Made by a program: the position numbers and the translations under genes. Below the pieces are notes generated by a model. It had not been told where the DNA came from, did no database searches, and saw only the letters and a list, made by a program, of their open reading frames with translations. Shown here in pieces: positions 3,204 to 19,588 of a stretch of DNA of 64,000 bases; the stretch's first letter is position 1; each line of letters starts with the position of its first letter. This DNA is from Escherichia phage muut: the sequence record NC_052657.1; one strand, 5' to 3'.

Positions 3204-3401
3204 ATGATGCTAGATCAACTGATCAATGCTCCTCGCGTAACAGTAAGTCCAAAAACATTTGCATCACTTTTAGAAGATGCTAGAGAGGTTTATAACTTTA
3301 CTGAAGAAGAGCTTCCTGTTCCTGTTAAAAAAGGTTCCAGATGGTTGTTTTATGAAGGTATTATTTTTACTGAAGGGAATAATTGGAAGGAGACTAAATG
3401 A
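3204..3401 (+). CDS. hypothetical protein (65 aa)
   Basis: ATG preceded by AAGGAGG; ORF-track 3111 start overlaps previous gene. Confidence 0.5.
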   Translation: MMLDQLINAPRVTVSPKTFASLLEDAREVYNFTEEELPVPVKKGSRWLFYEGIIFTEGNNWKETK

Positions 3402-4387
3402 AATACTTAGTAACAGGTGGTTTAGGCTTTATTGGAAGTGCGGTAGTTCGTTTCCTGGCTAAAAACACTAAGAATGATATTTACGTTATAGATAAATGGG
3501 GTTACGCTTCAGACCCTAGAAATTTATCAGAAACACCTAATGTAAAGTTTTGTCGTGTTGACTTGACAAATGCTCAGTTAACTGCTAAGATTGTGGCAGA
3601 TGTTAATCCAGATTATATAATGCATCTTGCAGCAGAAAGTCACGTAGATAATTCAATAGCATCACCGAGTGTTTTTATAAATTCAAATATTGTTGGAACA
3701 TTTAATCTTCTAGAAGCTGTTCGTTTAATGGGAGATAAATCAAATCTTAAAATGTTTCATCATATTTCAACAGATGAAGTGTATGGTGATCTGGAAGAAG
3801 GGGATTATCCGTTTACAGAACAGAATCCTTATAAGCCAAGTAGTCCATATGCTGCATCTAAGGCAGCAAGCGATCATTTGGTAAGAGCGTGGCATCGTAC
3901 TTATGGTATTCCGACAGTTATAACAAATTGTTCAAATAATTTTGGAGCGTATCATCATCCAGAAAAACTAATACCTAAAACGATAACAAATATTTTGATG
4001 CATAAACCAATCCCTGTTTATGGCAATGGTCTTCAAGTAAGAGATTGGTTATACGTTGACGATCACGCAGAAGCATTACACCTAGTAGTAACTAAAGGCA
4101 AATCTGGAGAAACATATAATATTGGGAGCAGAAACCCTAGAACTAATATTGATGTAATCTATATGATTTGTGATTATATGGATGCGGTGTATCCATCTGA
4201 AACAGATGCTTGTAGCCTCATTGAGATGGTTACAGATAGGCCTGGGCATGATTTAAGATATGAAGTGAATCCTTATAAGATTGAAAAGGAATTAGGGTGG
4301 AAAGCTAAAGGCACATTTGAAGAAAAACTTTATTCAACCATTGATTGGTATGTAGATAACAAAGAGTGGTGGGAAAATAAAGTTTAA
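3398..4387 (+). CDS. rmlB: dTDP-glucose 4,6-dehydratase
   Basis: 329 aa; N-terminal GGLGFIGS Rossmann motif, YAASK catalytic YxxxK. Confidence 0.9.
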
Positions 4388-4395
4388 GGAGGAGT

Positions 4396-5265
4396 ATGAA
4401 AGGTATTATCTTAGCAGGTGGTAGTGGAACAAGACTTTACCCAGTTACTAAAGGGGTTAGTAAACAACTATTACCAATTTACGATAAACCTATGATTTAT
4501 TATCCACTCTCTGTCCTAATGCTTTCTGGAATTAGGGAAATACTAATAATTACGACACCAGAAGATCAAATTAATTTTGTAAATCTTCTAGGTGATGGTT
4601 CTTCTTTTGGTATTTCCCTACAGTATGCAATACAGGACAACCCAAAAGGTTTAGCAGAAGCGTTTATTATTGGTGAGAGCTTTATTGGTGAAGATTCTGT
4701 AGCACTTGTTCTAGGTGATAATTTGTTCTTTGGTCAGAGTTTTGGTAGCATTTTAGATTCTGCTAAAGAACATATTGAAAAGAATGGTGGAGCTAATATT
4801 TTTGGGTATCACGTAAATGATCCTGAAAGATTTGGTGTTGTTGAGTTTGATTCTGAAGGTACAGTGGTAAGTATTGAAGAAAAACCAAAAGCACCAAAAA
4901 GCAATTATGCAATTACAGGCTTGTACTTTTACGATAATTCTGTTATACAGAAAGCTAAAAGCGTTAAACCTTCTGCTAGAGGGGAATTAGAGATCACAGA
5001 TATAAATGAGATGTACTGGAAAGAAAAGACTTTACGTGTCTGTAAACTAGGAAGAGGTTTCACTTGGCTGGATACAGGAACACATGAAAGTCTTATGGAA
5101 GCATCTCAATTTGTTCATGCAATAGAAAAGCAACAAGGTATGAAGGTTGCATGCCTGGAAGAGATTGCTTTTAAAAATGAATGGATTACTTTAGACTCTG
5201 TAAAAAGTTCTGGAGAGGTTTTAAGTAAAACAGACTACGGTAAGTATTTACTTAAATTAAAATAA
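4396..5265 (+). CDS. rmlA: glucose-1-phosphate thymidylyltransferase
   Basis: 289 aa; N-terminal [14 protein letters not shown] nucleotidyltransferase signature. Confidence 0.9.
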
Positions 5266-5277
5266 AGGGGGAATTAA

Positions 5278-5832
5278 ATGATTCAAGCAACAAAAATCGA
5301 AGATTTGTTGATCATTCAACCTGACGTTTACGGAGATGAACGTGGTTTTTTCTTAGAAAGTTTTAATCAGGCTTTATATGATCAATACATAGGTAAACAA
5401 AACTTTGTCCAAGATAACCATTCACGTTCTATTCGAGGAGTTCTACGTGGGCTTCATTTTCAAAAGAAAAACCCACAAGGGAAGTTAGTACGTTGTGTTC
5501 GTGGTGAAGTTTATGATGTTGCTGTAGATATTAGGGTTGATAGTCCAACATTTGGAGAATGGGTAGGTGTTCTCTTATCTGAAAAGAATAAAACACAATT
5601 TTGGATTCCTCCTGGTTTCGCTCATGGCTTTGTTGTGATTAGTGACATTGCTGATTTTGAATATAAATGTACAGAATATTACGATCCGACTTCAGAGTGT
5701 AGTCTTGCGTGGAATGATCCAGATATCAATATTGATTGGGGTTTTGATTTAATCTTTAATGATATTAATTTTAAACCTATCTTGTCACAAAAAGATCAGG
5801 AAGCCAAAACACTAAAGGAGATCATATTTTGA
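5278..5832 (+). CDS. rmlC: dTDP-4-dehydrorhamnose 3,5-epimerase
   Basis: 184 aa cupin-type; RGLHFQ and DERGFFLE segments typical of RmlC. Confidence 0.85.
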   Translation: MIQATKIEDLLIIQPDVYGDERGFFLESFNQALYDQYIGKQNFVQDNHSRSIRGVLRGLHFQKKNPQGKLVRCVRGEVYDVAVDIRVDSPTFGEWVGVLLSEKNKTQFWIPPGFAHGFVVISDIADFEYKCTEYYDPTSECSLAWNDPDINIDWGFDLIFNDINFKPILSQKDQEAKTLKEIIF

Positions 5833-6659
5833 CAAAATTTTTAATCTTTGGTTCAAAAGGTCAATTAGGACAATCTTTGGCAAAAGTTGCACCAGAAGAT
5901 GTTATTTTGATTGAAGCAAGTGATATAGACATTACCAACTTTAAAGATGTTATGAATAGTCTTGTACAGCACGTGCCTGATGTTGTTGTGAATTGTGCGG
6001 CTTACACGGCAGTAGATAAAGCTGAAGAAGATGTTAACACCTGTATAAATGTTAATGCATACGGTGCAACAAACATTGCCAAAGCATGTAATGATTTACT
6101 GATACAGTTTGTACATATTTCAACAGACTATGTTTTTGATGGGCATGTTGCTGGCACAGAAGATAGTAAAACAAACCCCTTGAACACCTACGGTTACAGT
6201 AAACAATTAGGTGAAACTTTAGTACAAACAGTTTGTCCTACAGCACTTATTATCAGAACAGCTTCTGTTTATAGTGAATTTGGACATAACTTTTTGAAAA
6301 CTATGTTGGAACGCTACAACGGTGGTCAAAAAGAATTTAATGTAGTATGTGATCATTTATCATGTCCTACTTATGCACCTGATCTTGCAGAAACAATTTT
6401 TAAACTTGTAAAAGATGGTGTAAATAGTAAAATTGTACACTATGCAGGTGCAGATTATATTTCTTGGTATGATTTTGCACGAAAGATATTTCTTGTTATA
6501 GATTTATCTGTTACAGTTAATCCTGTATCTGCTTCAACCTATAATTCCAAAGCAGTCAGACCAGCAACATCTTATTTAAAAACAGATCCTACTTTAAATC
6601 CGCGAAGTGTTGATAGCGGTATTGTAAGAACTTTAACTATACTTTTAAACAAGGAGTGA
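5829..6659 (+). CDS. rmlD: dTDP-4-dehydrorhamnose reductase
   Basis: 276 aa; N-terminal FGSKGQLGQ Rossmann motif; last gene of rml operon order. Confidence 0.8.
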   Translation: MTKFLIFGSKGQLGQSLAKVAPEDVILIEASDIDITNFKDVMNSLVQHVPDVVVNCAAYTAVDKAEEDVNTCINVNAYGATNIAKACNDLLIQFVHISTDYVFDGHVAGTEDSKTNPLNTYGYSKQLGETLVQTVCPTALIIRTASVYSEFGHNFLKTMLERYNGGQKEFNVVCDHLSCPTYAPDLAETIFKLVKDGVNSKIVHYAGADYISWYDFARKIFLVIDLSVTVNPVSASTYNSKAVRPATSYLKTDPTLNPRSVDSGIVRTLTILLNKE

Positions 6660-7621: not shown

Positions 7622-8374
7622 ATGGGAAATAAAACCGCAAAGGCTCGTCGTCAATCAGCAGCCAATGATGACAAACGTGCCAGTCGTTATGCGGCTAAAG
7701 CAGTAGGAAATGATGATTACCGTCTTGATGAATTTACCCCTGTTGGGAATCAAGAAGCTATTGTAAGAAGCATGGTTTGGAATGATTTAACCATTGTTAA
7801 TGCCCCAGCAGGAACAGGAAAAACGACAACAGCACTATGGAAAGCATTGCAAATGCTTAAAGCTGGTGATTTCAGAAAGTTGATTTTCCTTAAAAACCCG
7901 ACAGAAGTAGGTGATGATCAAATTGGTTTCTTATCTGGAGATAAGACTGATAAACTAGCAGCACATTACGAATCAACTAAAAGAATTTTCCAACAGTTTA
8001 TGACTGCAAATAAATTGGAAAACGATATTGCAAGTGGCAAAATTGAACTTAATATTCCAAACTATGCACTAGGTGCTACGTGGGATAACAGCATTATTCT
8101 TATTGATGAAGTTCAACTTATGTCACCAAATACAGTAAAACTTCTCCTTGAGCGAGCAGGTCTTAATACACGTATTGTCATTATGGGTGATGTTAATCAA
8201 ACATATGCAATTAAACGAAGAGCTAATGGGTTAGGTGATTTGTTAGATCGTGTTGTTCCTATTAACGAAGAAGGAGAAAGGGAAGCTATTGTAGATTTTA
8301 TTGGTTATGTTGAAATGACAACTGCTGATAACCAACGTTCCCGTTTGTCTCAGTTCATCACGGAAGTATATTAA
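7622..8374 (+). CDS. phoH: PhoH-like ATPase
   Basis: 250 aa; Walker A GTGKTTTA; size and context as in T4-like phages. Confidence 0.85.
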   Translation: MGNKTAKARRQSAANDDKRASRYAAKAVGNDDYRLDEFTPVGNQEAIVRSMVWNDLTIVNAPAGTGKTTTALWKALQMLKAGDFRKLIFLKNPTEVGDDQIGFLSGDKTDKLAAHYESTKRIFQQFMTANKLENDIASGKIELNIPNYALGATWDNSIILIDEVQLMSPNTVKLLLERAGLNTRIVIMGDVNQTYAIKRRANGLGDLLDRVVPINEEGEREAIVDFIGYVEMTTADNQRSRLSQFITEVY

Positions 8375-8410: not shown

Positions 8411-8902
8411 ATGACGCTAATTGAGATTGATCGCAATGGTATTGATGAATGCTATCAAGCTGGCTTAGTTAAGCCGAATGAGTTTAGACAGATTTATATT
8501 GACAAGATTGAAAAAGAAATATCTCTTCGTTTAGAGAACATGGCAACTTTGCAAAAAGTTCAGATGTTTTTTAGTTGGTTGAAAGGAGAGGATTGGCTAA
8601 CTAAATATTACCAGGAATTATCTGATAGTCAAGAAGGCTTGTTTGAGTGTATAATAAATGTAGCTGGGTCTAATTCAGAGTTACTCCTGATTGATGAAGA
8701 AGATTCTAAACTTCTTTTTCTTAGCAGTATTTTTCACAAGAAATCTATGTTAGTAAGAAATTGCAGTGATTTACTAAATCATCCACTAACAAGAACTAAT
8801 AAAATTCTTGTGGATAAAGAAACACTAAGAGCTATTGATTACCTCCGTAAATATGTAAGCGGTGGTAAAGCAGTCCTTAAAACACTACAGGAGGAAGTAT
8901 AA
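8411..8902 (+). CDS. hypothetical protein (163 aa)
   Basis: GGAGG RBS; no motif recognised. Confidence 0.5.
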   Translation: MTLIEIDRNGIDECYQAGLVKPNEFRQIYIDKIEKEISLRLENMATLQKVQMFFSWLKGEDWLTKYYQELSDSQEGLFECIINVAGSNSELLLIDEEDSKLLFLSSIFHKKSMLVRNCSDLLNHPLTRTNKILVDKETLRAIDYLRKYVSGGKAVLKTLQEEV

Positions 8903-9555
8903 TGACAACAATTATTGCAACACGTAACAAAATTTTGTCTGACGGTAAGGTAACAGTAGGTAGTCGTGTAGACACTTTAAACTTCAAGAAAGTGCGTAAA
9001 ATTGGGGACTACCTTGTTGGTGGTGCAGGACGTCTGTCTTCTATCCTGACTTTCTTTTCTTGGTTTGAACAAAACTTACAATGCCAGGCAGCACAAGAGA
9101 CAATCCCAGGTTTGGTGATCCAGTCAGATCCCGATAAAGAAGATGAAGAGTTTGTGGCATTGGTTGTTCATCCAGACGGTAAAATTTATATGCACGAGGG
9201 TAATAATCCAACGCGAGCATATCCTTTAACTGAAGATTATTATGCTGTTGGTAGTGGGGCAGATTTTGCTTTAGCAGCTTTAGATGCAGGGGCAACTCCA
9301 GAAGAAGCGATGGAAGTTGCAAAACTGCGAGATGCTTTTTCCGGCGGTGAAACTTTTATCGAAGAGATCGAAGAACAACTGGAGTTAACAGCGGAAGATA
9401 TTCTGAACTTCAGCAAGGAGCAACTAATTAGTATGCTGTTGACTGGTGATCCTGATAGCGATGAAGCTGAAAGTATTTTAGCAGAAATGAAAGAATCACA
9501 AGAAAAAGTATTGACAGTCTCTGAAAAACTTGATAAAGTGTCCTCTGATAATTAA
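8902..9555 (+). CDS. HslV/proteasome-beta-like peptidase
   Basis: N-terminal MTTII (Thr nucleophile after Met), GG.G and AVGSGADFALAAL segments. Confidence 0.5.
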   Translation: MTTIIATRNKILSDGKVTVGSRVDTLNFKKVRKIGDYLVGGAGRLSSILTFFSWFEQNLQCQAAQETIPGLVIQSDPDKEDEEFVALVVHPDGKIYMHEGNNPTRAYPLTEDYYAVGSGADFALAALDAGATPEEAMEVAKLRDAFSGGETFIEEIEEQLELTAEDILNFSKEQLISMLLTGDPDSDEAESILAEMKESQEKVLTVSEKLDKVSSDN

Positions 9556-9595: not shown

Positions 9596-10024
9596 ATGTT
9601 ACCAGTACCTGTAACCTTTGTAGAAAAAGCCTACTACTCTTTAGAACAAAACTGTAAAAGAGCTAAAAATTTTATTGAAAGTTTAGCAGAACAGCGTTAC
9701 ACTGTATCTAAAAAGGGATGGTTCAGAACTTCACAATATTCAGTCAACCCTTTCGGAGAAGTTCGTGTGTTGTACGGCAACACAGAAAATATCTTAGAAA
9801 GAATGTTAGAACTAGATAGGATCTCCTCCTGTGATTATCAACTGTTGAAATTTTACGATGTGTCAGAAAACATTAAAAACTTTCTTGACGATTTATGTAA
9901 ACGAAAAACAGAAGAAGATACAATACCAGTATCTATGGAAGAATTAACGTTCTTAAGAGATATTATGGTTTTTGAAGAAAACCCTGAAATCACAAAAGAG
10001 GAGATTTTAAGTAGTGGCAAATAA
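9596..10024 (+). CDS. hypothetical protein (142 aa)
   Basis: GGAGG RBS; no motif recognised. Confidence 0.5.
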   Translation: MLPVPVTFVEKAYYSLEQNCKRAKNFIESLAEQRYTVSKKGWFRTSQYSVNPFGEVRVLYGNTENILERMLELDRISSCDYQLLKFYDVSENIKNFLDDLCKRKTEEDTIPVSMEELTFLRDIMVFEENPEITKEEILSSGK

Positions 10025-10523
10025 GTATGATCGTCCACCAACTGATTACTATCCTACTCCACAAAAATGTATAAATGCATTATTTAGTGTAATAGATTTT
10101 AATAACCTTAAAGAAGAAGGTTTTATTTTTGCAGAACCGTGTAAAGGCGCTGCTGCTGCAATTTATCAACATTTTCCAGAAGGATCAGAATATTGTGAGT
10201 TAGAAGAAGGGAAGGATTATTTTAACCACGAATGGCATACTAAGCCGGATATTATAATCACAAATCCACCATTCAGACTTGCACTTGAGTTCTTGCAAAA
10301 GAGCTTAAAAGAAGCAGACGTTTGCATATACTTGTTGCGTCTTGGGTTCCTAGAGTCTATTAAACGAAGGGAATTCCATAAACAGAACCCACCAACAAAT
10401 TTGATTGTTCTTTCTGAACGACCATCTTTTGTTGCAGGTGGTACTGATAAGACAGCATATGCTTGGTACGTCTACGACCCAAAAAACAGGCTGGGTTTAA
10501 CTCAACCTTTCTATTTTGTTTAA
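10014..10523 (+). CDS. dam: DNA N6-adenine methyltransferase (small phage Dam type)
   Basis: 169 aa; IITNPPF motif IV; YYPTP N-terminal segment. Confidence 0.6.
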   Translation: MANKYDRPPTDYYPTPQKCINALFSVIDFNNLKEEGFIFAEPCKGAAAAIYQHFPEGSEYCELEEGKDYFNHEWHTKPDIIITNPPFRLALEFLQKSLKEADVCIYLLRLGFLESIKRREFHKQNPPTNLIVLSERPSFVAGGTDKTAYAWYVYDPKNRLGLTQPFYFV

Positions 10524-10536
10524 GAGGAGCATTTTT

Positions 10537-10767
10537 ATGACCGAGAAATTTATTGTTACTATGGAACTCACCTTTGATGAAGAAGATTTTGATCTTCACG
10601 TATCAACTAAAGCAGATAACATTCACACGACACAGAGTGTTGCAATCGCTATGTTCTTTAAGCAAGCAATTGCAAAACAAGCTGAAGTGTGTGCTGGTTT
10701 AGCTGTAGAGTACGCAGAAGTTGTCAAGGTTCTTGAAAGTGCTCGCAACAACGATTGGGATGAATAA
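10537..10767 (+). CDS. hypothetical protein (76 aa)
   Basis: ATG with AAGAGGAG RBS 21 nt inside ORF-track ORF. Confidence 0.45.
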   Translation: MTEKFIVTMELTFDEEDFDLHVSTKADNIHTTQSVAIAMFFKQAIAKQAEVCAGLAVEYAEVVKVLESARNNDWDE

Positions 10768-10970
10768 TGGCATACAATTACTATCTGGTATATTTTAACG
10801 AAACTAAGAAAAAAGACACAGGAACTAATGTTTATGCGGAATCGGAAGAACACGCAAAAGCTATTGGTTCAGTGCTTCTTTCTAGAATAGCAGGTGAAGA
10901 AATTCCTGTAGAGGCTATCTTTGCAGAAGTTGACCCTGGTATTCAAGAAGATGATATTACCACTACTTAA
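10767..10970 (+). CDS. hypothetical protein (67 aa)
   Basis: ATGA overlap with previous gene. Confidence 0.45.
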   Translation: MAYNYYLVYFNETKKKDTGTNVYAESEEHAKAIGSVLLSRIAGEEIPVEAIFAEVDPGIQEDDITTT

Positions 10971-10973
10971 CTG

Positions 10974-11020
10974 TTGACTTTAACATTGAGGTAGTGCATA
11001 CTTCCTGTAACAGAACAGGA
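10974..11020 (+). promoter_or_regulatory. sigma70-like promoter plus 5' stem-loop
   Basis: TTGACT-17-CATACT, then TCCTGT-AACAGAA-ACAGGA hairpin, then GGAGGG RBS. Confidence 0.45.
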
Positions 11021-11027
11021 GGGTATT

Positions 11028-11690
11028 ATGAAGTTTGTACTGTATCATCGACTTTCTAAGAAGAAACAACAAGGCAACCAGTATGGTATAGAATCACAGG
11101 AAGCAGATATCCAACGCTTCCTGGATTCACAAGAAAATTATACTATTGTAGGTAGCTTTGCAGAGTTTTATTCTGGTAAAGGCGATTGGAAGCAACGTAG
11201 AGAGCTTGTAAAAGCTGTTAATCTTTGCAAAGAAACAGGTGCTACACTTGTTGTTGCTAAGGTTGACCGTCTTGGACGTAACACAGCTTCTGTTGCAACC
11301 TTGTTAGAGATGATTAATGTACGGATAGCCACTATGCCCTCCGCTGAAAATATGATAATAAATATTTTAGCAGTTCTGGCAGAAGAAGAGGCTCGTGCAA
11401 TATCTGATCGTGTTAAGAAGAGCCTTAAGGTAGCAAAAGCGAAGGGAACGCTTCTTGGTGCAGCAAACCCTAAATACAAAAGAACAGATTATACGAAAAC
11501 GGAAGAAGCAAAACGCTCAAAAGAGTTTGCACTTTCTTTAAAAGATTCTTTAGTTGCATACAGAGCTTGTAAAACGCCATATATGACGATTGCAAAGCAT
11601 CTGAATGAATCAGGAAAGAGAACTATTCGTGGGAGTTTGTTCGATGCCAAAGCGGTACAACGTCTTTGTGCAAAATTGAATATTAAATAA
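11028..11690 (+). CDS. serine recombinase (resolvase/invertase family)
   Basis: 220 aa; YHRLSKKKQ (catalytic Ser), SGKG...R, VVAKVDRLGRN motifs. Confidence 0.7.
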   Translation: MKFVLYHRLSKKKQQGNQYGIESQEADIQRFLDSQENYTIVGSFAEFYSGKGDWKQRRELVKAVNLCKETGATLVVAKVDRLGRNTASVATLLEMINVRIATMPSAENMIINILAVLAEEEARAISDRVKKSLKVAKAKGTLLGAANPKYKRTDYTKTEEAKRSKEFALSLKDSLVAYRACKTPYMTIAKHLNESGKRTIRGSLFDAKAVQRLCAKLNIK

Positions 11691-11699
11691 GGAGGAAAC

Positions 11700-11903
11700 A
11701 TGGCAGTTCAATCTTTTGAGGAGACTGTTAAAAAACAATTCCTATCGAAGCGAGCGATGGTTGAATTTTTGCATTTTCTCGAAGTAGATAGGGTACTTAT
11801 TGAGACTACACCAGATGGTAACTGGCAAGTCTCGTATATTGCCACCAGGCATATCGTAGACAGTACGAAAGAAGAAAATTCGGAAGTTACGGTTGCTAGT
11901 TAA
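11700..11903 (+). CDS. hypothetical protein (67 aa)
   Basis: GGAGG RBS. Confidence 0.45.
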   Translation: MAVQSFEETVKKQFLSKRAMVEFLHFLEVDRVLIETTPDGNWQVSYIATRHIVDSTKEENSEVTVAS

Positions 11904-11914
11904 AGGAGTTAAAT

Positions 11915-12487
11915 ATGCGTTTAGCTTTTAACGGGAAGATAAGCACAGCAAACATATTGTCAGCAGTAGGATTATTAGGTAAAAAATTCACACCTTTCAG
12001 TTTACCAGTTTGTGTAGATTTTGATCATGTGTTTGATATTAATAATCCTTCACGTTGTATCGCCAGAAGTAATATTGATAACCCAAGTGAAAATCTGTTT
12101 TATATTACTAAACCATCCCAAGCAATTTTGAATCAATGGGAAGCAGGTCTGATTAAACCAGGTAAATATTTTGCATTACTACCTTGTAAATCATTGGCTA
12201 TAGAGGACAGTCTAAACTATGCAAACAATCTTGTTGTTACAGCATTCATTGTCTCAGAAAAAGAAGAAACTGCGGCACTTGCAAATACTGTTAAATCTTT
12301 GTATGATGCTTTGGGTGTTACTTACACTACCTTCGTTTGTGAAGATATTCCACATTGCGTTGAATTTGTGGTGAATGGTGTAACTGTATGTCGTGTAGAA
12401 ACAACTCAAGACGAAGACGTTTTTATTACTGTAGCCGATGTAATATCTGAACCTGTGTTTAGCTACGCAGTTTCATTAACACATTAA
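11915..12487 (+). CDS. hypothetical protein (190 aa)
   Basis: AAGGAG RBS. Confidence 0.5.
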   Translation: MRLAFNGKISTANILSAVGLLGKKFTPFSLPVCVDFDHVFDINNPSRCIARSNIDNPSENLFYITKPSQAILNQWEAGLIKPGKYFALLPCKSLAIEDSLNYANNLVVTAFIVSEKEETAALANTVKSLYDALGVTYTTFVCEDIPHCVEFVVNGVTVCRVETTQDEDVFITVADVISEPVFSYAVSLTH

Positions 12488-12497
12488 GGAGAAGGGG

Positions 12498-12824
12498 ATG
12501 AAAATAACGACAGAACAGGCTTTAATAGACAAAGGAAGGGAAATCTTAGAAAGTCATTTGGAGGATATTCAAAGGACTCCAGGGTATCTCGGCTGGCGTA
12601 TACAAGAAGCCGTCGATTTTCTACCCCGTAAAAATAAAGAGATTGAAGTAAGATCTCTATTCCTCCTTGTTAAAGTAGATGGTGACGCTATATACAAAGA
12701 TGTAGCGTCTCACATTGAACAAATAGAAGAAAAAGCCTACAAAGAATTTGCAGATCTTGTTGTAGAACATAATATAGAAGGTAAAGTTAATATCTTTATA
12801 CTTATGGATTTTGAGGAGAGTTGA
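12498..12824 (+). CDS. hypothetical protein (108 aa)
   Basis: AAGGAG RBS. Confidence 0.5.
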   Translation: MKITTEQALIDKGREILESHLEDIQRTPGYLGWRIQEAVDFLPRKNKEIEVRSLFLLVKVDGDAIYKDVASHIEQIEEKAYKEFADLVVEHNIEGKVNIFILMDFEES

Positions 12825-13567
12825 TGCTAGTATATCAAGAAATTAGTGTAAAAGATGATCAAGACCTGTTTATTATTGGTGATTTACATGGTTGCTTTGA
12901 TTTGTACCAGAAAGGTGTTAATACTTTAGGTATCCGAGATCAAGATGTTGTTGTATCTTTAGGAGATCTTACAGATCGCGGCAAGCAGAATTTTCGTTGT
13001 GTTGTTGAATTCACCAGAAAGCTAAATCGTTATGGTATTCGTGGAAACCATGAAGATATGATGATTAAAGGGTTGCTAGAAGGTGATAGACGATATTACG
13101 AATGTTGGTTTCAGAACGGAGGCCATACAGTTCTAGACGAGTGTGGAGAAGAGGGTGCAACTGCTCTTGCTTTGATGCTAGAAGATTTACCTGTTGTACT
13201 TGTTGTCAATTATCGTAATATGAAACTAGGCTTTATTCACGGTGGTTATCCTTCAGTTTTGGAACATTTACCAGTGACAGAAGTTTTGCCATTTTGTTTG
13301 AATATGAATAAAGAGCAAGTTTCTCGATTCACAGAATCTTTAATGTGGGATCGTGATATGATAGATTGCGCCCTTGAAGGGATTCTTCTTCCTAGAGTTT
13401 CAGGAGTAGATTATGTATTTCACGGGCATTCTTATGTTCCTAAACCTGTAATTAGCAGTAATAGGGTATATATGGATACAGGATCTTGCTTCAATGGTAA
13501 TTTAACCTTTGCATATTTTGATGATACAAATACGTTACAATTTTATTCTACTTTAGAGGAGGACTAA
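12821..13567 (+). CDS. Ser/Thr protein phosphatase (PPP-family metallophosphatase)
   Basis: GDLHGCFD, GDLTDRG, GNHE signature motifs. Confidence 0.8.
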   Translation: MMLVYQEISVKDDQDLFIIGDLHGCFDLYQKGVNTLGIRDQDVVVSLGDLTDRGKQNFRCVVEFTRKLNRYGIRGNHEDMMIKGLLEGDRRYYECWFQNGGHTVLDECGEEGATALALMLEDLPVVLVVNYRNMKLGFIHGGYPSVLEHLPVTEVLPFCLNMNKEQVSRFTESLMWDRDMIDCALEGILLPRVSGVDYVFHGHSYVPKPVISSNRVYMDTGSCFNGNLTFAYFDDTNTLQFYSTLEED

Positions 13568-13887
13568 TGTATAAAGTCACAATTAAAGAGACGGTAGGGA
13601 ATATTACGAAAGAAACTACTATTGAAACGGAAGACGTTGAGTTAGTCAAAGAGCTTTTATTTCCAAAATCAGAAATAAAAGATAATGACGAACAGTTGGA
13701 TGAAGATAACGATACAGCAAGGGATAAATGGAAGAAACAACTAGCGGAGATTTGGAAAAAGCCTCAAGTAACGCCTCCATTTGATCCTCGTACACCTTAT
13801 AGTCCTTGGGAAATTGGAAGCCCTTGGTTTACGTACCCTATTACTCCAATTGTTACTCCCAGTATTATTCCCAATATTACTTGTTAA
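13567..13887 (+). CDS. hypothetical protein (106 aa)
   Basis: ATGA overlap with phosphatase gene. Confidence 0.45.
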   Translation: MYKVTIKETVGNITKETTIETEDVELVKELLFPKSEIKDNDEQLDEDNDTARDKWKKQLAEIWKKPQVTPPFDPRTPYSPWEIGSPWFTYPITPIVTPSIIPNITC

Positions 13888-13897
13888 GGAGAAAACC

Positions 13898-14476
13898 ATG
13901 AGCGATTTATTCTACACAGGTGTTGGTAGTAGAGATATTACAGACGAAGAATGGGACACTATGGTAGCTGTTGCAAAATGGTTATCTACATGGTTCATTT
14001 TGCGATCTGGTAAAGCAGAAGGTGCAGATTCCGCATTTGAATGCGGGGTATATGATAGTGGAAACAATACAAAGAAAGAAATATACATTCCTTGGCCTTC
14101 GTTTAAAGGTAATGAGATAGATGGAGAGGTTATTGTTCTTGACAGACCAGATAGTGTAAACTATGCTCTAACCTTGCAATATGCAAAAGAATTGCATCCA
14201 GCTTGGGACAGATTATCTCAAGGTGCTAAAAAATTACATCAAAGAAATATCCACCAAGTTCTTGGAAGAGATCTTGAGAATCCAAAACCATCTTGTTTTC
14301 TTTTAGCTTGTGCAAATACAGATAAAAATGGAGATCCTTTAGGTGGTACAAGAACAGCTTGGATGTTGGCTAAAAAGTTTAATGTTCCTTGTTTTAATAT
14401 TCGAGGTAAAAGTAAAAAACAAATTTTCGAATTTATTAAGCCTATTTTAGAGGAGAATGGTCTTGTCCAGAAATAA
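13898..14476 (+). CDS. DprA/Smf-like (SLOG-fold) protein
   Basis: ATG with AAGGAGA RBS at 13898; GVGSRD...SGKAEGADSAFE and RNIHQVLG segments resemble DprA Rossmann domain. Confidence 0.45.
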   Translation: MSDLFYTGVGSRDITDEEWDTMVAVAKWLSTWFILRSGKAEGADSAFECGVYDSGNNTKKEIYIPWPSFKGNEIDGEVIVLDRPDSVNYALTLQYAKELHPAWDRLSQGAKKLHQRNIHQVLGRDLENPKPSCFLLACANTDKNGDPLGGTRTAWMLAKKFNVPCFNIRGKSKKQIFEFIKPILEENGLVQK

Positions 14477-14981
14477 TATAAGCATCATTAAAGATAGCTT
14501 TATTGATGTAACAAACGATATTGTACCTACAATACAATATATAGTTGAGGCACAAGGTTTAAACTTTATACGTGATAAAGTTAAGATTGTTTTTCATAAC
14601 ACTCCAGGTTTTGTAACAGTAGGTTCAACAAAAACGCCGTGCTCTACAGATCTGATTACTTTAGACAAAAACTTAACACAAGAAGAAGTAGAAATTCTTA
14701 ACCTCTATTGGCTAGGTTTTAAAAGATATGAGGATACAGCTTTATCCCGAATGTCAACTATTTTAGCTAACATTCTAGTTCGGAAAATTTCTAAACTATG
14801 GGATGAAGAAAACCCAGATGAAATAGTTTTACACTTTGCTAAACCGGAAGACGGGGCATATGATATAGACACATCTGAAATGGCTTATGGGTTTATTATT
14901 TCTGGTAATGTATTACAGATGGAATCTTTATTGTATGTTGAGACAGTAAAACACAATAACAACTACGAGGAGGTTGTATGA
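14457..14981 (+). CDS. hypothetical protein (174 aa)
   Basis: ORF overlapping previous stop. Confidence 0.5.
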   Translation: MVLSRNNISIIKDSFIDVTNDIVPTIQYIVEAQGLNFIRDKVKIVFHNTPGFVTVGSTKTPCSTDLITLDKNLTQEEVEILNLYWLGFKRYEDTALSRMSTILANILVRKISKLWDEENPDEIVLHFAKPEDGAYDIDTSEMAYGFIISGNVLQMESLLYVETVKHNNNYEEVV

Positions 14982-15235
14982 AAGGTTTAGAGTTTAACTT
15001 TGTAGATGCGTGGGAAGGATGGGATGAACTAGGAGTAGGGGATTTATGTTTTTATGATGTTACCTTGAAGGAAGAATACAAACATCTAGCCCCTAGTGAA
15101 GATTGCGATGTGATTCTATCTATTCTATTAAGTCAGTCTATAGTGCAATTTGATTTTCTAAAAGGTAGTGAGTGTATTGAAAGTAAAGCATTCCGTTTAG
15201 AAGTTTCTCTTGGTGAAGAAGTTCCTGTAGAATAA
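14978..15235 (+). CDS. hypothetical protein (85 aa)
   Basis: ATGA overlap. Confidence 0.5.
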   Translation: MKGLEFNFVDAWEGWDELGVGDLCFYDVTLKEEYKHLAPSEDCDVILSILLSQSIVQFDFLKGSECIESKAFRLEVSLGEEVPVE

Positions 15236-15238
15236 TAT

Positions 15239-15261
15239 AAACCCGCTTCAGCGGGTTTTTT
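15239..15261 (+). terminator. rho-independent terminator
   Basis: AAACCCGC-TTCA-GCGGGTTT followed by TTTT. Confidence 0.65.
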
Positions 15262-15262
15262 G

Positions 15263-15291
15263 TTGACAACACCAGTTTTTTCGAATAAACT
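15263..15291 (+). promoter_or_regulatory. sigma70-like promoter
   Basis: TTGACA-17-TAAACT immediately after terminator. Confidence 0.45.
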
Positions 15292-15320
15292 ACAGAAAAA
15301 CAGAAGAGGAGAAGATTAGC

Positions 15321-15731
15321 ATGTACTATAGTGACTATTTTGTAAACCCAACAAAAGAACAACTTCAATCAGCAGCGGATAAGATGCAGATTGTAGTTAA
15401 AGAATGTGAGAAAATAAGAAAACAACTACAAGAAGAGATTGTTGTTGTTAATAAATGGTTTGGTCTTAAGAAGAAAATTGTTAGTAAACACAATATCATC
15501 CTTGAAAAAGCAAAAACGACAGGAACTAGTTACGCCTTACAAGCCTTGTTACTAAATTACATTGATATAGAACAACATTCTCTTCTGCACTGTTGGCTTA
15601 ACAGCCCTAGTATTGAGAATCTCTTGTTCTGGTTATCGTGTGAATCTGTACTTTTAAATGAGAATGAGGCTTACCGTTTAAACTTCTGCCTCAAGGCAGA
15701 ATTACCAGCTAGTGTTAAGGAGAAGAAGTAA
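15321..15731 (+). CDS. hypothetical protein (136 aa)
   Basis: GAGGAG RBS. Confidence 0.5.
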   Translation: MYYSDYFVNPTKEQLQSAADKMQIVVKECEKIRKQLQEEIVVVNKWFGLKKKIVSKHNIILEKAKTTGTSYALQALLLNYIDIEQHSLLHCWLNSPSIENLLFWLSCESVLLNENEAYRLNFCLKAELPASVKEKK

Positions 15732-15733
15732 TA

Positions 15734-16723
15734 ATGAAAGTTTTAAGTCTTTTTGATGGTATGTCAGGAGGAATGCTTGCGCTAAAAAGTGCAGGTATTG
15801 AAGTAGATACATATTACGCTTCAGAATTAGACAAATTTGCCGTAGCTGAAAGCCAAGCAAATTTTCCAGATATTATTCAGTTAGGTGATGTTACAAAATG
15901 GAGAGAATGGGATATCCCGTGGGGAGAAATTGATCTTTTGTTAGGTGGTAGTCCGTGTCAAGGCTTCTCTTCTTCTGGTAAGGGTTTGAACTTTCAAGAT
16001 CCGCGATCTAAGTTATTCTTCGAATATGTTGAAATTCTTGAACATATTAAAAAGTTTAATCCTAATGTTAAGTTCATGCTTGAAAACGTTAAGATGAAAG
16101 TGGAGTGGGAAAACGTGATCACAAGTTACTTAGGTGTTGATCCCGTATTCATTAACTCCGCAGATTTCACGGCACAGAATAGACAACGTTTATACTGGTG
16201 CAACTGGGAAATAAAACCCTGGGAGATTACCAATGAAGTGTTGCAAGATATCATTGAAGATGATAGTATTGTAGACAGAGATAAGGCTTATTGCATAGAT
16301 GCAAATTATGCCAAAGGTGGTAATATAGAACAGTATTTTGAAAAGAGTCGCAGACAACTGGTTTTTTATCCGGCAGCAATATATGGGCGTAGAATTAATG
16401 AAAATGGCAAACGTAGTACATCTAAAACTGATCGTTTGGTACATTGTTTGGAAGTTCAGGACAGTGAAAAAACTCGTTGCCTCACGACTGTGCCTAAAGA
16501 CGTACTATTAGCCTACATTCCACCTGGAAGATATCTAGATGCTTTTGAAAAATTGAGTGAAGGCGTACATTATAGAAAGTTAACGGTTAAAGAGTGTTGC
16601 CGCTTGCAAGGTGTGCCAGATGATTACTTTAAAGTGAGTAGTAACACACAAGCATATAAGATGTTAGGTAACGGTTGGACTATACCTGTCATTGCACATA
16701 TTCTTAAATGTATGGAGGAATAG
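15734..16723 (+). CDS. dcm: DNA cytosine-5 methyltransferase
   Basis: LFDGMSGG (motif I), GSPCQGFS (motif IV PCQ), ENV (motif VI), GNGWTIPV (motif X). Confidence 0.85.
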   Translation: MKVLSLFDGMSGGMLALKSAGIEVDTYYASELDKFAVAESQANFPDIIQLGDVTKWREWDIPWGEIDLLLGGSPCQGFSSSGKGLNFQDPRSKLFFEYVEILEHIKKFNPNVKFMLENVKMKVEWENVITSYLGVDPVFINSADFTAQNRQRLYWCNWEIKPWEITNEVLQDIIEDDSIVDRDKAYCIDANYAKGGNIEQYFEKSRRQLVFYPAAIYGRRINENGKRSTSKTDRLVHCLEVQDSEKTRCLTTVPKDVLLAYIPPGRYLDAFEKLSEGVHYRKLTVKECCRLQGVPDDYFKVSSNTQAYKMLGNGWTIPVIAHILKCMEE

Positions 16724-16845
16724 TGGAAACATTGTGGAAAGGCTGGAAGACTGCTCTGATAGCCTTTATAATTCCATTAACTTTTCTTGGTTGGTGTTTT
16801 TGGGAATTTATCTTTTGGTTAATTTCCCATATACATTGGGGGTAA
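16723..16845 (+). CDS. small hydrophobic peptide (40 aa)
   Basis: GTG overlapping dcm stop with GGAGG RBS; single TM-like segment. Confidence 0.3.
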   Translation: METLWKGWKTALIAFIIPLTFLGWCFWEFIFWLISHIHWG

Positions 16846-16846
16846 T

Positions 16847-17458
16847 ATGACTCAAAAAGTTGCATATCAAGTAGATCGTGAAGACGGTGAAGGTAGTGTT
16901 GTAGTTTTTGATACACATGGTCTTGCAGCAAGACGCAAAGGTGCTTGTCTACTGGACATTGGTGGTGAAGATGAATACTGCACTGTACGTAGAGTAAAAG
17001 AATTTGATCAATATGCTGAAAAAGGTTTTGTACCTGCAAAAGCACTATTAGAAGCTGGATGGTGGATACCTAGTGCACATGATTATGATATTTTGGAATC
17101 AGATACAGACGATTTTAACAGTGAAGATTTTGTTTTTTCTCTGGATGAAAAATGCGTTTGGAAAGATTGGGATGAAATGGAACGCCATGCTTATTTTATA
17201 AACGAAGCATTAGATCGTAAAACTTGGTTTGAGAATACAGTTAAAGCAGCGTATCCTCAATTTACTTTTACAGAATTTTGGGGTGGCCCACACCATATTA
17301 CTCATGTGGCATACTTCGAGTTCCCAGGCTCACGCTATAAAGGTACTGTCTATTGGGATTGGGACGAGGACAAAGAACCTTCTGCTCAAGACTTCCGTTG
17401 CTATGTTTGTCAAGGTGATCAAGAAGCCCTTGACAAGTACCTTAAAAGTCTGGTATAA
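16847..17458 (+). CDS. hypothetical protein (203 aa)
   Basis: ORF only. Confidence 0.5.
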   Translation: MTQKVAYQVDREDGEGSVVVFDTHGLAARRKGACLLDIGGEDEYCTVRRVKEFDQYAEKGFVPAKALLEAGWWIPSAHDYDILESDTDDFNSEDFVFSLDEKCVWKDWDEMERHAYFINEALDRKTWFENTVKAAYPQFTFTEFWGGPHHITHVAYFEFPGSRYKGTVYWDWDEDKEPSAQDFRCYVCQGDQEALDKYLKSLV

Positions 17459-17475
17459 TCCGTAAAACTTAACCA

Positions 17476-17499
17476 AAGCCCCAAGCAGGGGCTTTATTT
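17476..17499 (+). terminator. rho-independent terminator
   Basis: AAGCCCC-AAGCA-GGGGCTT then TATTTG. Confidence 0.6.
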
Positions 17500-17512: not shown

Positions 17513-18046
17513 ATGGGTTTTGATGACATGTTATTATATGAGGAGGCTTGTGTGAAAGAAGCTATGGCTTTACCAGTTTTATCTATTGATATTACAACAG
17601 TAGACACTTTTTCAGATTGTGAAACGTGTGGATCGTATTCGTCTATTGTACATGAAGTTAGTGGGGATTTAGGCACTTACGAAGATGGAGATTATGCAAG
17701 TTGTTTAGGTGATAATCGAGATGGTGAAGTGGCGAATGTTGCAAACTGGATTGCTTCTAAGTTAAAAGAAAGAAATCGTCCGTTCCCTAATCTTCTTACA
17801 CCAGAAGCTATGCTTAAAGCTGAACAAGAGATGTATGATTATGGTTATAAAGTAGATTATGACTATAATGATCCTAAATATAAAAAATTGAGTGACAAGT
17901 ATTGGGAACTAGCTAATGCTTATGATAAATACTACTCTACAGAAAACATTGTTAAATTGTTTTTAGATTTTGGAGTAGAAATTAATTGGGATTTCGAAGA
18001 GGAAGAGCGTTACGACGCATCTTCTTGGGAGGACGAGGGTGAATGA
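17513..18046 (+). CDS. hypothetical acidic protein (177 aa)
   Basis: ATG with GGAGGA RBS 15 nt inside ORF-track ORF. Confidence 0.5.
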   Translation: MGFDDMLLYEEACVKEAMALPVLSIDITTVDTFSDCETCGSYSSIVHEVSGDLGTYEDGDYASCLGDNRDGEVANVANWIASKLKERNRPFPNLLTPEAMLKAEQEMYDYGYKVDYDYNDPKYKKLSDKYWELANAYDKYYSTENIVKLFLDFGVEINWDFEEEERYDASSWEDEGE

Positions 18047-18783
18047 TAGAACGAAAACCCTTACCAGATAGAGATTACTTGTTATCAAGGTTTAGTGTGG
18101 AGAATGGTCGTCTTGTTTGGAAACCTAAACCTTCTACAACAAAAGAGAACAAAAGGTGGAATAGCAGATACGCAGGGAAGATTGCAGGGACTATTGATAA
18201 AGCTGGTTACTCTCATGTCAAAATAGATGGTATTGTATACTTGGAGCACAGAGTTTGTTTTAAAATGTATCATAATTACTGTCCAGATGTTATAGACCAT
18301 GATGACGGCAATAAACTTAATAATGCGGAAAGTAATTTATTGGATAGTAACTATTTATTAAATAATAACAATAGACACGTGGATGGGTTAGAAGGTATTT
18401 ATGAAAAGGATGGTGTTTTTCTTTGGGTTATAAACTACAACCAAGAAACTTTCTCTGTTTCAGGTTTCAAAACTAAAGAGGAAGCTATTGTAGCTAGAGC
18501 TTTAGCAAAACAAGAAATTTTGAAAGGATCTTATATCAAAAAAGAAAAGAAGCGTATAGATAACACTTCAGGATTAAGCTGTGTGTTTGTGGCAACAAGA
18601 GAGAGAACATTCTTTTTCAAGTTTGTGTTTGACAAGATCACGTATTGCAAATATGGTTTCAACGATCCAGAGAGATGTGCTATAGCTCTGGAGAAACTAA
18701 GATTGAAGGTGATGAAAGAAAAATATAAACCTGCAAATAAAAGCATTTGCGAAAAATATAAGGAGGAGATTTATGCCGCGTAG
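18043..18783 (+). CDS. HNH homing endonuclease with AP2-type DNA-binding domains
   Basis: GY..V.IDG..YLEHRV...IDHDDGNKLNN HNH_3 pattern; two AP2-like repeats. Confidence 0.55.
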   Translation: MIERKPLPDRDYLLSRFSVENGRLVWKPKPSTTKENKRWNSRYAGKIAGTIDKAGYSHVKIDGIVYLEHRVCFKMYHNYCPDVIDHDDGNKLNNAESNLLDSNYLLNNNNRHVDGLEGIYEKDGVFLWVINYNQETFSVSGFKTKEEAIVARALAKQEILKGSYIKKEKKRIDNTSGLSCVFVATRERTFFFKFVFDKITYCKYGFNDPERCAIALEKLRLKVMKEKYKPANKSICEKYKEEIYAA

Positions 18784-19588
18784 AGTCATATTCATAACTG
18801 GTGCAGGACTATCTGTGGATAGCGGTATCCCAGCTTTTAGAACAGATACTTCTTCAGGGAAGGCGTTATGGTCTTCTTATGATCTTTTTGAGGTCTGTGA
18901 CATTTTCAACTTCCGTGACGGTTATCAGCAAGAACAAGGTGTTCTTGATGCTATGGGTGGTTTAGATGCAGAAGGATATAACCTCTACCGTAAAACTCAC
19001 GACTTTTACAATAAACGTCGCGTGGAATTAGAGAAAGTTGACCCGAATCCAGCACATCTTCAGATTGGAGAATGGTTCAAAAAATATGGCCCAGAACGAA
19101 TTATTAACATTACTACTAACGTGGATGACCTCCTTGAACGAGCAGGAGTAGATAGGGAAGAAGTGCTACATGTGCACGGTTTTCTTCCTGAAATTACTTT
19201 TCAAAGAAAAGCTGGACAACCTACAATTGTAAAAGATGTTGGTTATCAAGCCATAGATGTAGATGACTACCATTATGTAAAACCTAATGTAATTTTCTTT
19301 GGGGAAGCTGCTCCACTTTACACGGATATGTATCATATTTTTGATACTTTGACCATGCAAGATTTGGTTGTTGTAGTAGGATGTTCAAACCAAGTTATCA
19401 ATTTTAATTGGGAATTATTCCCTGCACTTAATATGGGTACAAAAATGATCGTTGTTAACCCAGGAATTAATTACGAAGAAACTCTTCTTTACGAAGACAG
19501 AGGAGTTTTTGTTTATCGAGAAAAGGCCGCAGATGCTTTTAGCAATCCTGCTTTCATAAAAATGATAGAAGATCATTTGACTAAGTAA
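18773..19588 (+). CDS. Sir2-family NAD-dependent deacylase/ADP-ribosyltransferase-like protein
   Basis: ITGAGLSVDSGIPAFR, ITTNVDDLLERAG, VVVGCS motifs. Confidence 0.75.
   Translation: MPRRVIFITGAGLSVDSGIPAFRTDTSSGKALWSSYDLFEVCDIFNFRDGYQQEQGVLDAMGGLDAEGYNLYRKTHDFYNKRRVELEKVDPNPAHLQIGEWFKKYGPERIINITTNVDDLLERAGVDREEVLHVHGFLPEITFQRKAGQPTIVKDVGYQAIDVDDYHYVKPNVIFFGEAAPLYTDMYHIFDTLTMQDLVVVVGCSNQVINFNWELFPALNMGTKMIVVNPGINYEETLLYEDRGVFVYREKAADAFSNPAFIKMIEDHLTK

Follow-up and report, generated by a model that had tools for sequence, protein, structure and literature searches.

The question raised by this locus is what two DNA methyltransferase genes, carried on the same strand of a coliphage genome, modify, and whether they protect the phage against restriction. 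The DNA analysed, called the window here, is a stretch of 64,000 nucleotides from Escherichia phage muut (NC_052657.1). An earlier note, made from the letters alone, had assigned to it an adenine-N6 and a cytosine-C5 enzyme; both genes lie where it had put them, on the plus strand and about 5 kb (5.2 kb) apart, with matches far beyond chance. We consider it likely, at roughly 70%, that they encode two unrelated orphan S-adenosylmethionine (SAM, AdoMet)-dependent methyltransferases, one a C5-cytosine enzyme and the other a minimal amino-type enzyme, acting on DNA of ordinary bases and giving at most narrow protection. The two open reading frames (ORFs) are:

10014..10523, plus strand: ORF A, predicted minimal SAM-dependent amino-methyltransferase of the NPPF type, 169 amino acids (aa); gamma-like motif order, no target-recognition domain
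15734..16723, plus strand: ORF B, predicted orphan C5-cytosine DNA methyltransferase, 329 aa; PF00145 and TIGR00675 above cutoff

An 8-kb stretch around both genes aligns over its full length, at 98-99% identity, to the deposited genomes of over 50 phi92-like E. coli myophages, including phi92, VEcB, EmilieFrey (Bas61), Paula and PATM, and the source is itself, by sequence, a lytic phage of this group (Justusliebigvirus, Stephanstirmvirinae). Both genes are already labelled in phi92-like GenBank records; in EmilieFrey they are bas61_0203, 'putative N6 adenine methyltransferase', and bas61_0190, 'Dcm-like C5 cytosine methyltransferase'. The ORF B protein is 100% identical to its EmilieFrey orthologue, the ORF A protein is 98.8-99.4% identical to the orthologues of other phi92-like genomes (that of phi92 itself is named PHI92_gene_043), and gene order and neighbours at these loci are those of the window, with nothing substantive differing. 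The searched literature yielded no biochemical characterisation of the phi92-like orthologues.

Two methyltransferases of different class

ORF B is, by family, a complete and canonical C5-cytosine DNA methyltransferase, with activity predicted from its sequence. It matches PF00145 over residues 1-327 (1.7e-43, 149.8 bits against a cutoff of 22) and TIGR00675 (3.4e-41, 142 bits against a cutoff of 100.65); its sequence matches in the PDB are DNMT3A/B, M.HhaI and M.HaeIII, each at about 1e-23, and the family search gave at least 8000 candidates at E <= 1e-10. The full enzyme with motifs I, IV (PCQ), VI (ENV) and X that had been claimed is indeed present, with invariant catalytic residues, and motifs I, II, IV, VI, VIII, IX and X follow one another in canonical order. 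Conservation was judged over 29 homologues, in which E31 is also invariant, and the elements are:

15749..15772, plus strand: motif I, LFDGMSGG, AdoMet binding; F7 and G9 invariant
15944..15970, plus strand: motif IV, GGSPCQGFS (PCQ at 15953-15961), with the nucleophile Cys75; G71 to S79 invariant
16076..16090, plus strand: motif VI, MLENV (ENV at 16082-16090), in which Glu117 would protonate cytosine N3; L116, E117, N118 and V119 invariant
16175..16198, plus strand: motif VIII, QNRQRLYW (Q-x-R-x-R); Q148, R150, Q151 and R152 invariant
16199..16573, plus strand: variable/target-recognition region, about residues 156-280, between motifs VIII and IX; within its own family D172, E175, K184, A190 and K194 are invariant
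16574..16690, plus strand: motifs IX (RKLTVKECCRLQGVPDDY, 16574-16627) and X (LGNGWTIPV, 16664-16690); R281, T284, E287, G312 and N313 invariant

By the mechanism established for the family, ORF B would flip the cytosine to be methylated out of the DNA duplex, Cys75 of PCQ would attack C6, and the AdoMet methyl group would pass to C5 with the assistance of Glu117 of ENV, elimination then releasing 5-methylcytosine (m5C). With M.HhaI, M.HaeIII and the DNMT3A/B catalytic domain it has in common the ten-motif architecture (Cys in PCQ, ENV, QxRxR, GN); unlike the bacterial type II C5 enzymes, it has no partner nuclease and its region between motifs VIII and IX is unalignable. Since no PDB relative aligns across that region, the target sequence is not transferable from solved enzymes, and reading the specificity from solved homologues was ruled out. 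Against NF007772, the E. coli Dcm/M.EcoRII subfamily (CCWGG), ORF B reached 30 bits where the cutoff is 710, with only the C-terminal motifs IX-X aligning. On these alignments ORF B and E. coli Dcm are not orthologues, and the earlier name 'Dcm-type' is valid only in the sense of a generic C5-methyltransferase.

ORF A starts with GTG, with a Shine-Dalgarno sequence, AAGAGGAG, about 10 nt upstream, and the N-terminus is conserved among its homologues. No Pfam (at E <= 0.01), NCBIfam or PDB sequence match was obtained, and the match to phrog_799, 'DNA methyltransferase', has an E-value of 1.7e-56. A 41-member family alignment, with the consensus DxYxTP, EPCxGxG, ExxEGxDY, (I/V)ITNPPF, RPxF and TD..YAW..D, defines the conservation of the following elements:

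10044..10061, plus strand: motif X-like DYYPTP, contacting the AdoMet methionine in the gamma class; T15 invariant, D11, Y13 and P16 at least 90% conserved
10134..10157, plus strand: motif I, EPCKGAAA, AdoMet loop after strand beta1; E41 and P42 invariant, C43 and G45 at least 90% conserved
10197..10220, plus strand: motifs II/III, ELEEGKDY, acidic, AdoMet ribose/adenine; E62, G66 and D68 at least 90% conserved, Y69 invariant
10251..10274, plus strand: motif IV, IIITNPPF, the catalytic (D/N)PP(Y/F), with NPPF as residues 84-87 (10263-10274); I81, T83, N84, P85 and P86 invariant, F87 at least 90% conserved
10419..10478, plus strand: C-terminal family elements RPSF ... TD..YAW..YD; R136, P137, F139, D145 and D155 invariant, Y149 and W151 at least 90% conserved

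The C-terminal elements, between which some homologues carry a Cys-rich insertion, are a candidate substrate-contact region. An AlphaFold model (predicted local distance difference test 90.3; predicted template modelling score 0.87) is a bare class-I methyltransferase domain with a strand at E39-41, and the catalytic fold accounts for all 169 residues, leaving no target-recognition domain. The top Foldseek match of the model is M.TaqI, and its scores are 13.0 with MmeI, 12.6 with M.TaqI, 12.2 with M.BseCI and 10.7-12.1 with type I M subunits. The fold is that of the gamma class, with the motif order X-I-II-III-IV and (N/D)PP(Y/F), and the family profile is collinear (motif X, I, NPPF) with type I HsdM StySJI (E = 0.009), whose 'YFTP' aligns to DYYPTP, and with PacII M. 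An alpha-class order (motif I, target-recognition domain, motif IV) with GATC specificity was not found in ORF A; PF02086, the alpha-class Dam family, is absent from the 41 members even at E <= 1, and PF05869 (phage Dam) appears in 13 of them below threshold (best E 0.0059). By sequence and model ORF A is an exocyclic-amino methyltransferase with the gamma-class motif order and without a target-recognition domain, and is not of the Dam class. What survives of the earlier label 'Dam-type' is the NPPF amino-methyltransferase; the Dam class itself does not, as no Dam Pfam model is above threshold and the fold neighbours are gamma-class. With true Dam enzymes (alpha-class PF02086, as in E. coli and T4 Dam, and phage PF05869) ORF A has in common that it is a phage-encoded exocyclic-amino methyltransferase with (D/N)PP(Y/F). 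From M.TaqI, the MmeI methyltransferase domain, M.BseCI and HsdM it differs in its size of 169 aa, in having no target-recognition domain or specificity subunit, and in remaining below the thresholds of PF02384 and PF07669, found in 12 and 10 of the 41 members with best E-values of 6.5e-4 and 5e-4. An upstream 142-aa ORF (9596-10024) that overlaps ORF A was considered as its specificity partner and rejected; it has no Pfam match and is absent beside the Vequintavirus and Seunavirus orthologues.

The model lies equally near to gamma-class N6-adenine DNA enzymes (M.TaqI, HsdM, MmeI) and to the ribosomal RNA (rRNA) N6-methyladenosine enzymes METTL5/PH1948, and with this similarity comes an alternative that we regard as unlikely, namely that ORF A is a METTL5/PH1948-like or TrmM/RsmD-like RNA amino-methyltransferase, or a HemK-like protein methyltransferase, acting on host ribosomes, the transfer RNAs (tRNAs) of the related genomes or a translation factor. 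METTL5/PH1948 have the fold and NPPF of ORF A, and the fact that ORF A is without a target-recognition domain suits such a substrate; the fold matches to DNA N6-adenine enzymes are, however, equally strong, the profile links at E < 0.05 are only to the DNA enzymes DpnA, HsdM and PacII, and METTL5, which requires the partner TRMT112, is linked at a non-significant E = 0.5. Weak sub-threshold matches to MTS, the 'small methyltransferase domain', occur in 20 of the 41 members, but families of DNA N6-adenine enzymes dominate among such matches, with EcoRI_methylase in 37 of the 41 and, after MTS, PF05869, N6_Mtase and Eco57I. Annotated tRNA genes (13 in VEcB, one of them flagged as a pseudogene, and 11 in the related phage phAPEC8) would offer substrates, and near-identical phages are without adenine-methylation-type protection against EcoRI, EcoRV, EcoKI, EcoP1 and BREX; on the other side, ORF A and its relatives lie in phage DNA-metabolism neighbourhoods, that is, DNA replication and DNA methyltransferase clusters, not among RNA-processing genes. 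One family member is found with PF02086 and PF05869 methyltransferases, DnaB and ThyX in a cluster on a 67-kb phage contig, and another adjoins an RNase T-type exonuclease gene; such surroundings speak for DNA as the substrate. Judged by fold, motifs and the genes around it, the most likely product of ORF A is N6-methyladenine in DNA. That the family is not a sequence-specific 'Dam' at all, and comprises either RNA N6-methyladenosine methyltransferases for host rRNA or phage tRNAs or structure- or context-dependent DNA adenine methyltransferases whose marks lie off the classical restriction sites, seems to us distinctly improbable; if true, it would account for a core gene being strictly conserved in phages that are extremely sensitive to restriction-modification.

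Inheritance and gene context

The ORF A family comprises 7,123 cluster representatives at E <= 1e-10, mostly in phage-like contexts, and has no Pfam model. Nearly all of the 150 representatives listed are stand-alone proteins of about 110-260 aa; a search for fusion partners turned up one 560-aa member, and the extended members scanned had no recognisable extra domain. Identity to ORF A is at least 95% in phi92-like phages, 80-90% in phAPEC8-like phages and about 45-52% in rV5-, SSE121- and CR9-like phages. The inspected loci of phAPEC8, Vequintavirus and Seunavirus are syntenic, with the gene downstream of those for PhoH and the protease, and the ratio of non-synonymous to synonymous substitution rates (dN/dS) against phAPEC8 is 0.059, with dS saturated. 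On this comparative sequence evidence ORF A is a vertically inherited lineage-core gene under strong purifying selection.

The history of ORF B is of another kind. At 95% identity or more it occurs only in phi92-like genomes, its next relatives, below 60%, being in unrelated Vibrio, Bacteroides and other phages, and the homologues closest to it stand as orphans in replication/nin-type regions of phages or prophages. GC content and GC at third codon positions are like those of the neighbouring genes and give no signal of recent horizontal transfer. The gene stands in a compact cassette delimited by predicted signals:

15239..15258, plus strand: intrinsic-terminator-like hairpin between the methyltransferase genes; 8-bp stem with 5 G-C pairs, then TTTTGTT; -11.8 kcal/mol
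15263..15291, plus strand: predicted sigma70-like promoter TTGACA-17-TAAACT heading the cassette; 10/12 consensus
15321..15731, plus strand: orf136, first cassette gene; phAPEC8 gp193, in the same place, is its homologue (E = 3e-12)
16847..17458, plus strand: orf203, conserved, 3' of ORF B; 68% identity to its phAPEC8 homologue
17475..17495, plus strand: terminator-like hairpin closing the cassette; 8-bp stem with 5 G-C pairs; -13.3 kcal/mol

Both methyltransferase genes belong to one co-oriented early/middle gene array, so that the 'same transcriptional block' proposed for them holds as far as orientation goes; the predicted terminator and promoter intervene, however, and would separate ORF A from ORF B. 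Terminator-like sites are enriched in the region (18 against 7.4 +/- 2.9 in shuffled sequence) and promoter-like sites are not (52 against 46.2 +/- 6.8); phAPEC8 has an annotated terminator upstream of the equivalent cassette. A perfect sigma70 consensus, TTGACA-18-TATAAT with the extended -10 TG, was also seen at 17430-17459 (plus strand) inside the last codons of orf203, directly upstream of the closing hairpin and of the next gene at 17498.

At the slot of ORF B, phAPEC8, of the sister genus, has only a 227-aa C5-like protein without a target-recognition domain (motif I FDGSG, PPC, ENP) and without a Pfam match, flanked by homologues of orf136 and orf203 (phAPEC8 segment L005 15485-17209; window 15321-17458). 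The phAPEC8 record itself notes similarity of this short protein to rV5 and PVP-SE1 proteins. By sequence, the three-gene cassette of orf136, methyltransferase and orf203 is conserved between phi92-like phages and phAPEC8, and because the flanking genes are conserved while the methyltransferase differs, we infer that the latter was exchanged in place.

A cassette so compact, bounded by a predicted promoter and terminator and with a gene without assigned function on either side of ORF B, might be taken for a phage restriction-modification system of which this enzyme is the modification half and orf136 or orf203 the nuclease. We give this reading almost no credence, and it is largely refuted by the comparison with phAPEC8, where orf203 is conserved at 68% beside a different methyltransferase lacking a target-recognition domain, a state incompatible with a cognate enzyme pair. 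Further against it, orf136 has no Pfam match, and the ORF B homologues elsewhere are orphans, with no restriction-enzyme or Vsr Pfam match among the adjoining genes, so that a restriction-modification context for them was rejected. The fold of orf203 gave no informative match and no sign of a nuclease or dioxygenase, and is not a double-stranded beta-helix.

Ordinary cytosine, restriction sensitivity and role

Several points weigh against the view that ORF A and ORF B are DNA methyltransferases giving narrow protection to DNA of ordinary bases. Statements on the whole genome are read from the 98%-identical VEcB, the window being 64 kb of about 147 kb, and the searched literature holds no methylome data for Justusliebigvirus, Stephanstirmvirinae or Vequintavirus. 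In BASEL, phi92-like phages were found 'exceptionally susceptible' to restriction-modification systems, apparently without effective protection (PMC8594841), and BREX cuts the plating of Pau and PATM about 10^7-fold (PMC8565348); any protective effect of both enzymes is invisible in every system tested. Comparison of VEcB with phAPEC8 revealed no site tolerated only in the ORF B-bearing genome.

The evidence on the nature of the cytosine supports this view. No thymidylate-synthase-like gene lies in the 64-kb window, and the only one in VEcB is of the ThyX type (PF02511). Neither the VEcB annotation nor 40 larger uncharacterised VEcB proteins contain a ThyA-family deoxycytidine monophosphate (dCMP) hydroxymethylase, and no TET/JBP or 2-oxoglutarate (2OG)-oxygenase domain was found in those 40 (proteins of about 130 aa or more) or in the PHROG-style annotation. 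Pau and PATM, which are phi92-like by sequence, are BREX-sensitive and not restricted by BrxU, which cuts DNA with m5C, 5-hydroxymethylcytosine (hmC) or glucosylated hmC (PMC8565348).

In addition, 20 of the 64 hexamer palindromes are absent from VEcB, among only 38 absent hexamers overall, and observed against expected counts are 0 against 45 for AAGCTT, 0 against 32 for CTGCAG and 2 against 51 for GGWCC; 23 of the 64 are absent from the window (AAGCTT 0 against 19.7 expected, GGATCC 0 against 9.2). The purged sets differ between genera, AAGCTT, GGWCC and GGTACC being purged in VEcB and not in phAPEC8, and GTAC being depleted in phAPEC8. Such purging would be senseless unless the DNA were cleavable by restriction enzymes. 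On the strength of the ThyX gene, the missing oxygenases, the insensitivity to BrxU and the avoidance of palindromes, the phage DNA very probably carries ordinary cytosine and not T4-style hmC, as had been supposed; the search for a dCMP hydroxymethylase, made in the VEcB genome and the window, found none. The argument originally given, that a C5 methylase implies ordinary cytosine, was incomplete, as a C5-methyltransferase can feed TET-type hypermodification; the TET route was searched for in VEcB and not found.

Beside this result stands a further observation, that VEcB gp073 (323 aa, labelled 'thymidylate synthase', segment L002 32430-33401, just outside the window) has a weak partial ThyX match (PF02511 1.9e-9, positions 59-186 of 191) and may be a divergent flavin-dependent enzyme with a putative substrate.

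Hypermodification deserves separate mention; Olsen et al. speculated on rhamnosylation of hydroxymethylated nucleotides. The m5C made by ORF B would then be the first step of a site-specific route through hmC to glycosyl-hmC, drawing on dTDP-rhamnose and glycosyltransferases in the manner of TET-encoding phages. A complete dTDP-L-rhamnose pathway, RmlB, RmlA, RmlC and RmlD (Pfam E 1e-72 to 1e-82), is encoded at 3398-6659 (plus strand) of the window, in a region of nucleotide metabolism, yet phAPEC8 has the same rml and glycosyltransferase genes and no full-length C5-methyltransferase. Likewise, one of four adjacent VEcB glycosyltransferases outside the window scores against the TET-associated PF20691, at 22.1 bits below the cutoff of 27.5, but the oxygenase that would link the steps is missing from the 40 larger VEcB unknowns, and both hmC and TET pathways in VEcB were rejected as their components were not found. 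The insensitivity of the relatives to BrxU, their high sensitivity to restriction-modification and the strong palindrome avoidance speak against the route as well, and a paper on phage TET enzymes and glycosyltransferases (10.1101/2023.12.21.572611) makes no mention of the phi92-like lineage. We judge it very improbable. Phage Paula is not covered in the Durham paper on DNA modification.

As to function, the sensitivity to restriction-modification and BREX makes a promiscuous adenine methyltransferase unlikely, so any protection should be motif-limited and narrow. Broad protection against restriction is excluded by the published phenotypes, an anti-restriction role of both enzymes is weakly supported, and the earlier expectation that both likely serve this purpose is not well borne out. 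The probable targets of both enzymes are specific short sequences of the phage DNA after its replication, and protection, if any, would extend only to the sites that each recognises. GATC (observed/expected 1.00), GCGC (1.05) and CCWGG (0.92) are candidate protected sites because they are not avoided; since phAPEC8, which is without ORF B, tolerates them equally, this is not diagnostic. VEcB and phAPEC8 both tolerate GATC, GCGC, CCWGG and GCNGC, and they purge largely the same C-containing sites. Ten matching phi92-like records give wild-type K-12 MG1655, a strain that carries McrBC, as host, and from these records it may be weakly inferred that methylation by ORF B leaves no dense R-m5C sites. 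Against type II enzymes the genome seems to defend itself mainly by eliminating palindromic sites.

It is possible, though doubtful, that both genes encode active DNA methyltransferases whose main role is not restriction evasion, and that they mark DNA for replication, packaging or control of gene expression, shield it from mismatch repair or other nucleases, or methylate host DNA at takeover. ORF A is strongly conserved in a lineage whose members are all sensitive to restriction-modification in the laboratory, which fits such roles, although the published screens covered only a handful of specificities. GATC stands at an observed/expected ratio of 1.00 while many other palindromes are purged, which also suits them; nothing positive points, however, to a particular regulatory target, and orphan phage methyltransferases are classically tied to restriction evasion. 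For Drexlerviridae the BASEL authors saw no simple link between methyltransferase genes and restriction phenotype (PMC8594841), and phage C5-methyltransferases have other effects, such as the triggering of retron Eco1 through methylation of its multicopy single-stranded DNA (PMC12916289). Murphy et al. 2013, as cited in PMC12210895, addressed orphan phage methyltransferases and restriction evasion.

Neighbouring genes, related records and significance

No further methyltransferase paralogue occurs within the window; VEcB has a genuine beta-class PF01555 methyltransferase outside it. VEcB gp239, labelled 'DNA methyltransferase' in RefSeq (L003 9752-10231, between portal and head genes), was rejected as a candidate, being an XkdF-like prohead serine protease (PF14550 2.5e-11). 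phAPEC8 gp117 (L014 16487-16966) has the same position and the same label, which at the portal/head slot is probably a propagated misannotation that inflates phage methyltransferase counts.

Between the two methyltransferase genes lies a serine recombinase/resolvase gene at 11028-11690 (plus strand; PF00239 8.4e-22; PHROG 'DNA invertase'), carried although the phage is described as strictly lytic. An HNH endonuclease ORF at 18043-18783 (plus strand; phrog_99 3e-34), between orf182 and a Sir2 gene, looks from its sequence context like a homing-endonuclease insertion: VEcB and EmilieFrey have no gene at this slot, and the adjoining 5' part of Sir2 is likewise unalignable to VEcB. The window further encodes, all on the plus strand, this Sir2-family protein (18773-19588; PF02146 3e-20), a PhoH-like ATPase (7622-8374) and an HslV/proteasome-like peptidase (8902-9555), and VEcB additionally encodes NAMPT, PRPP synthetase, NADAR and Macro domain proteins. 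Taken together, these genes suggest a theme of NAD+/ADP-ribose metabolism or counter-defence.

Four 'Campylobacter phage' records with C. jejuni as host, MG065645, MG065639, MG065656 and MG065689 (A145, A150, C3 and A110a), hold counterparts of the ORF A and ORF B proteins at 98.8-99.1% identity; at 146.4 kb each they are as long as phi92-like coliphages. Their host assignment looks doubtful, unless contamination of the samples is the cause.

Adenine and cytosine methylases have been reported together before. In Pectobacterium phage CB7 (Certrevirus) N6-adenine and cytosine methylases were described, the latter variable within the genus (PMC7344957). CB7 is of a related myophage lineage, the adenine methylase singled out in it lies in a helicase/methylase/polymerase region, and only HHpred recognised the cytosine enzyme; the correspondence to ORF A and ORF B is putative. 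Co-occurrence is also mentioned for BME3 (PMC12210895) and noted for other coliphages (BASEL, PMC8594841; Olsen et al.).

Both genes are thus a matter of routine phage annotation, already labelled, and their co-occurrence is not new (CB7, BME3, BASEL). What is added is that the small enzyme is not of the Dam class, has no recognition domain and comes from a large family without a curated model; that the C5 enzyme occurs specifically in phi92-like genomes, where it replaces a shorter gene inside a conserved cassette; and that the phenotypes of near-identical phages speak against broad anti-restriction, the genome relying on palindrome purging instead. For phage therapy and engineering, the methylation motifs would help to predict which hosts bearing restriction-modification or McrBC-type systems these broad-host-range phages can infect. 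The residual interest lies in the uncurated family of mini-methyltransferases without a target-recognition domain, and in its substrate.

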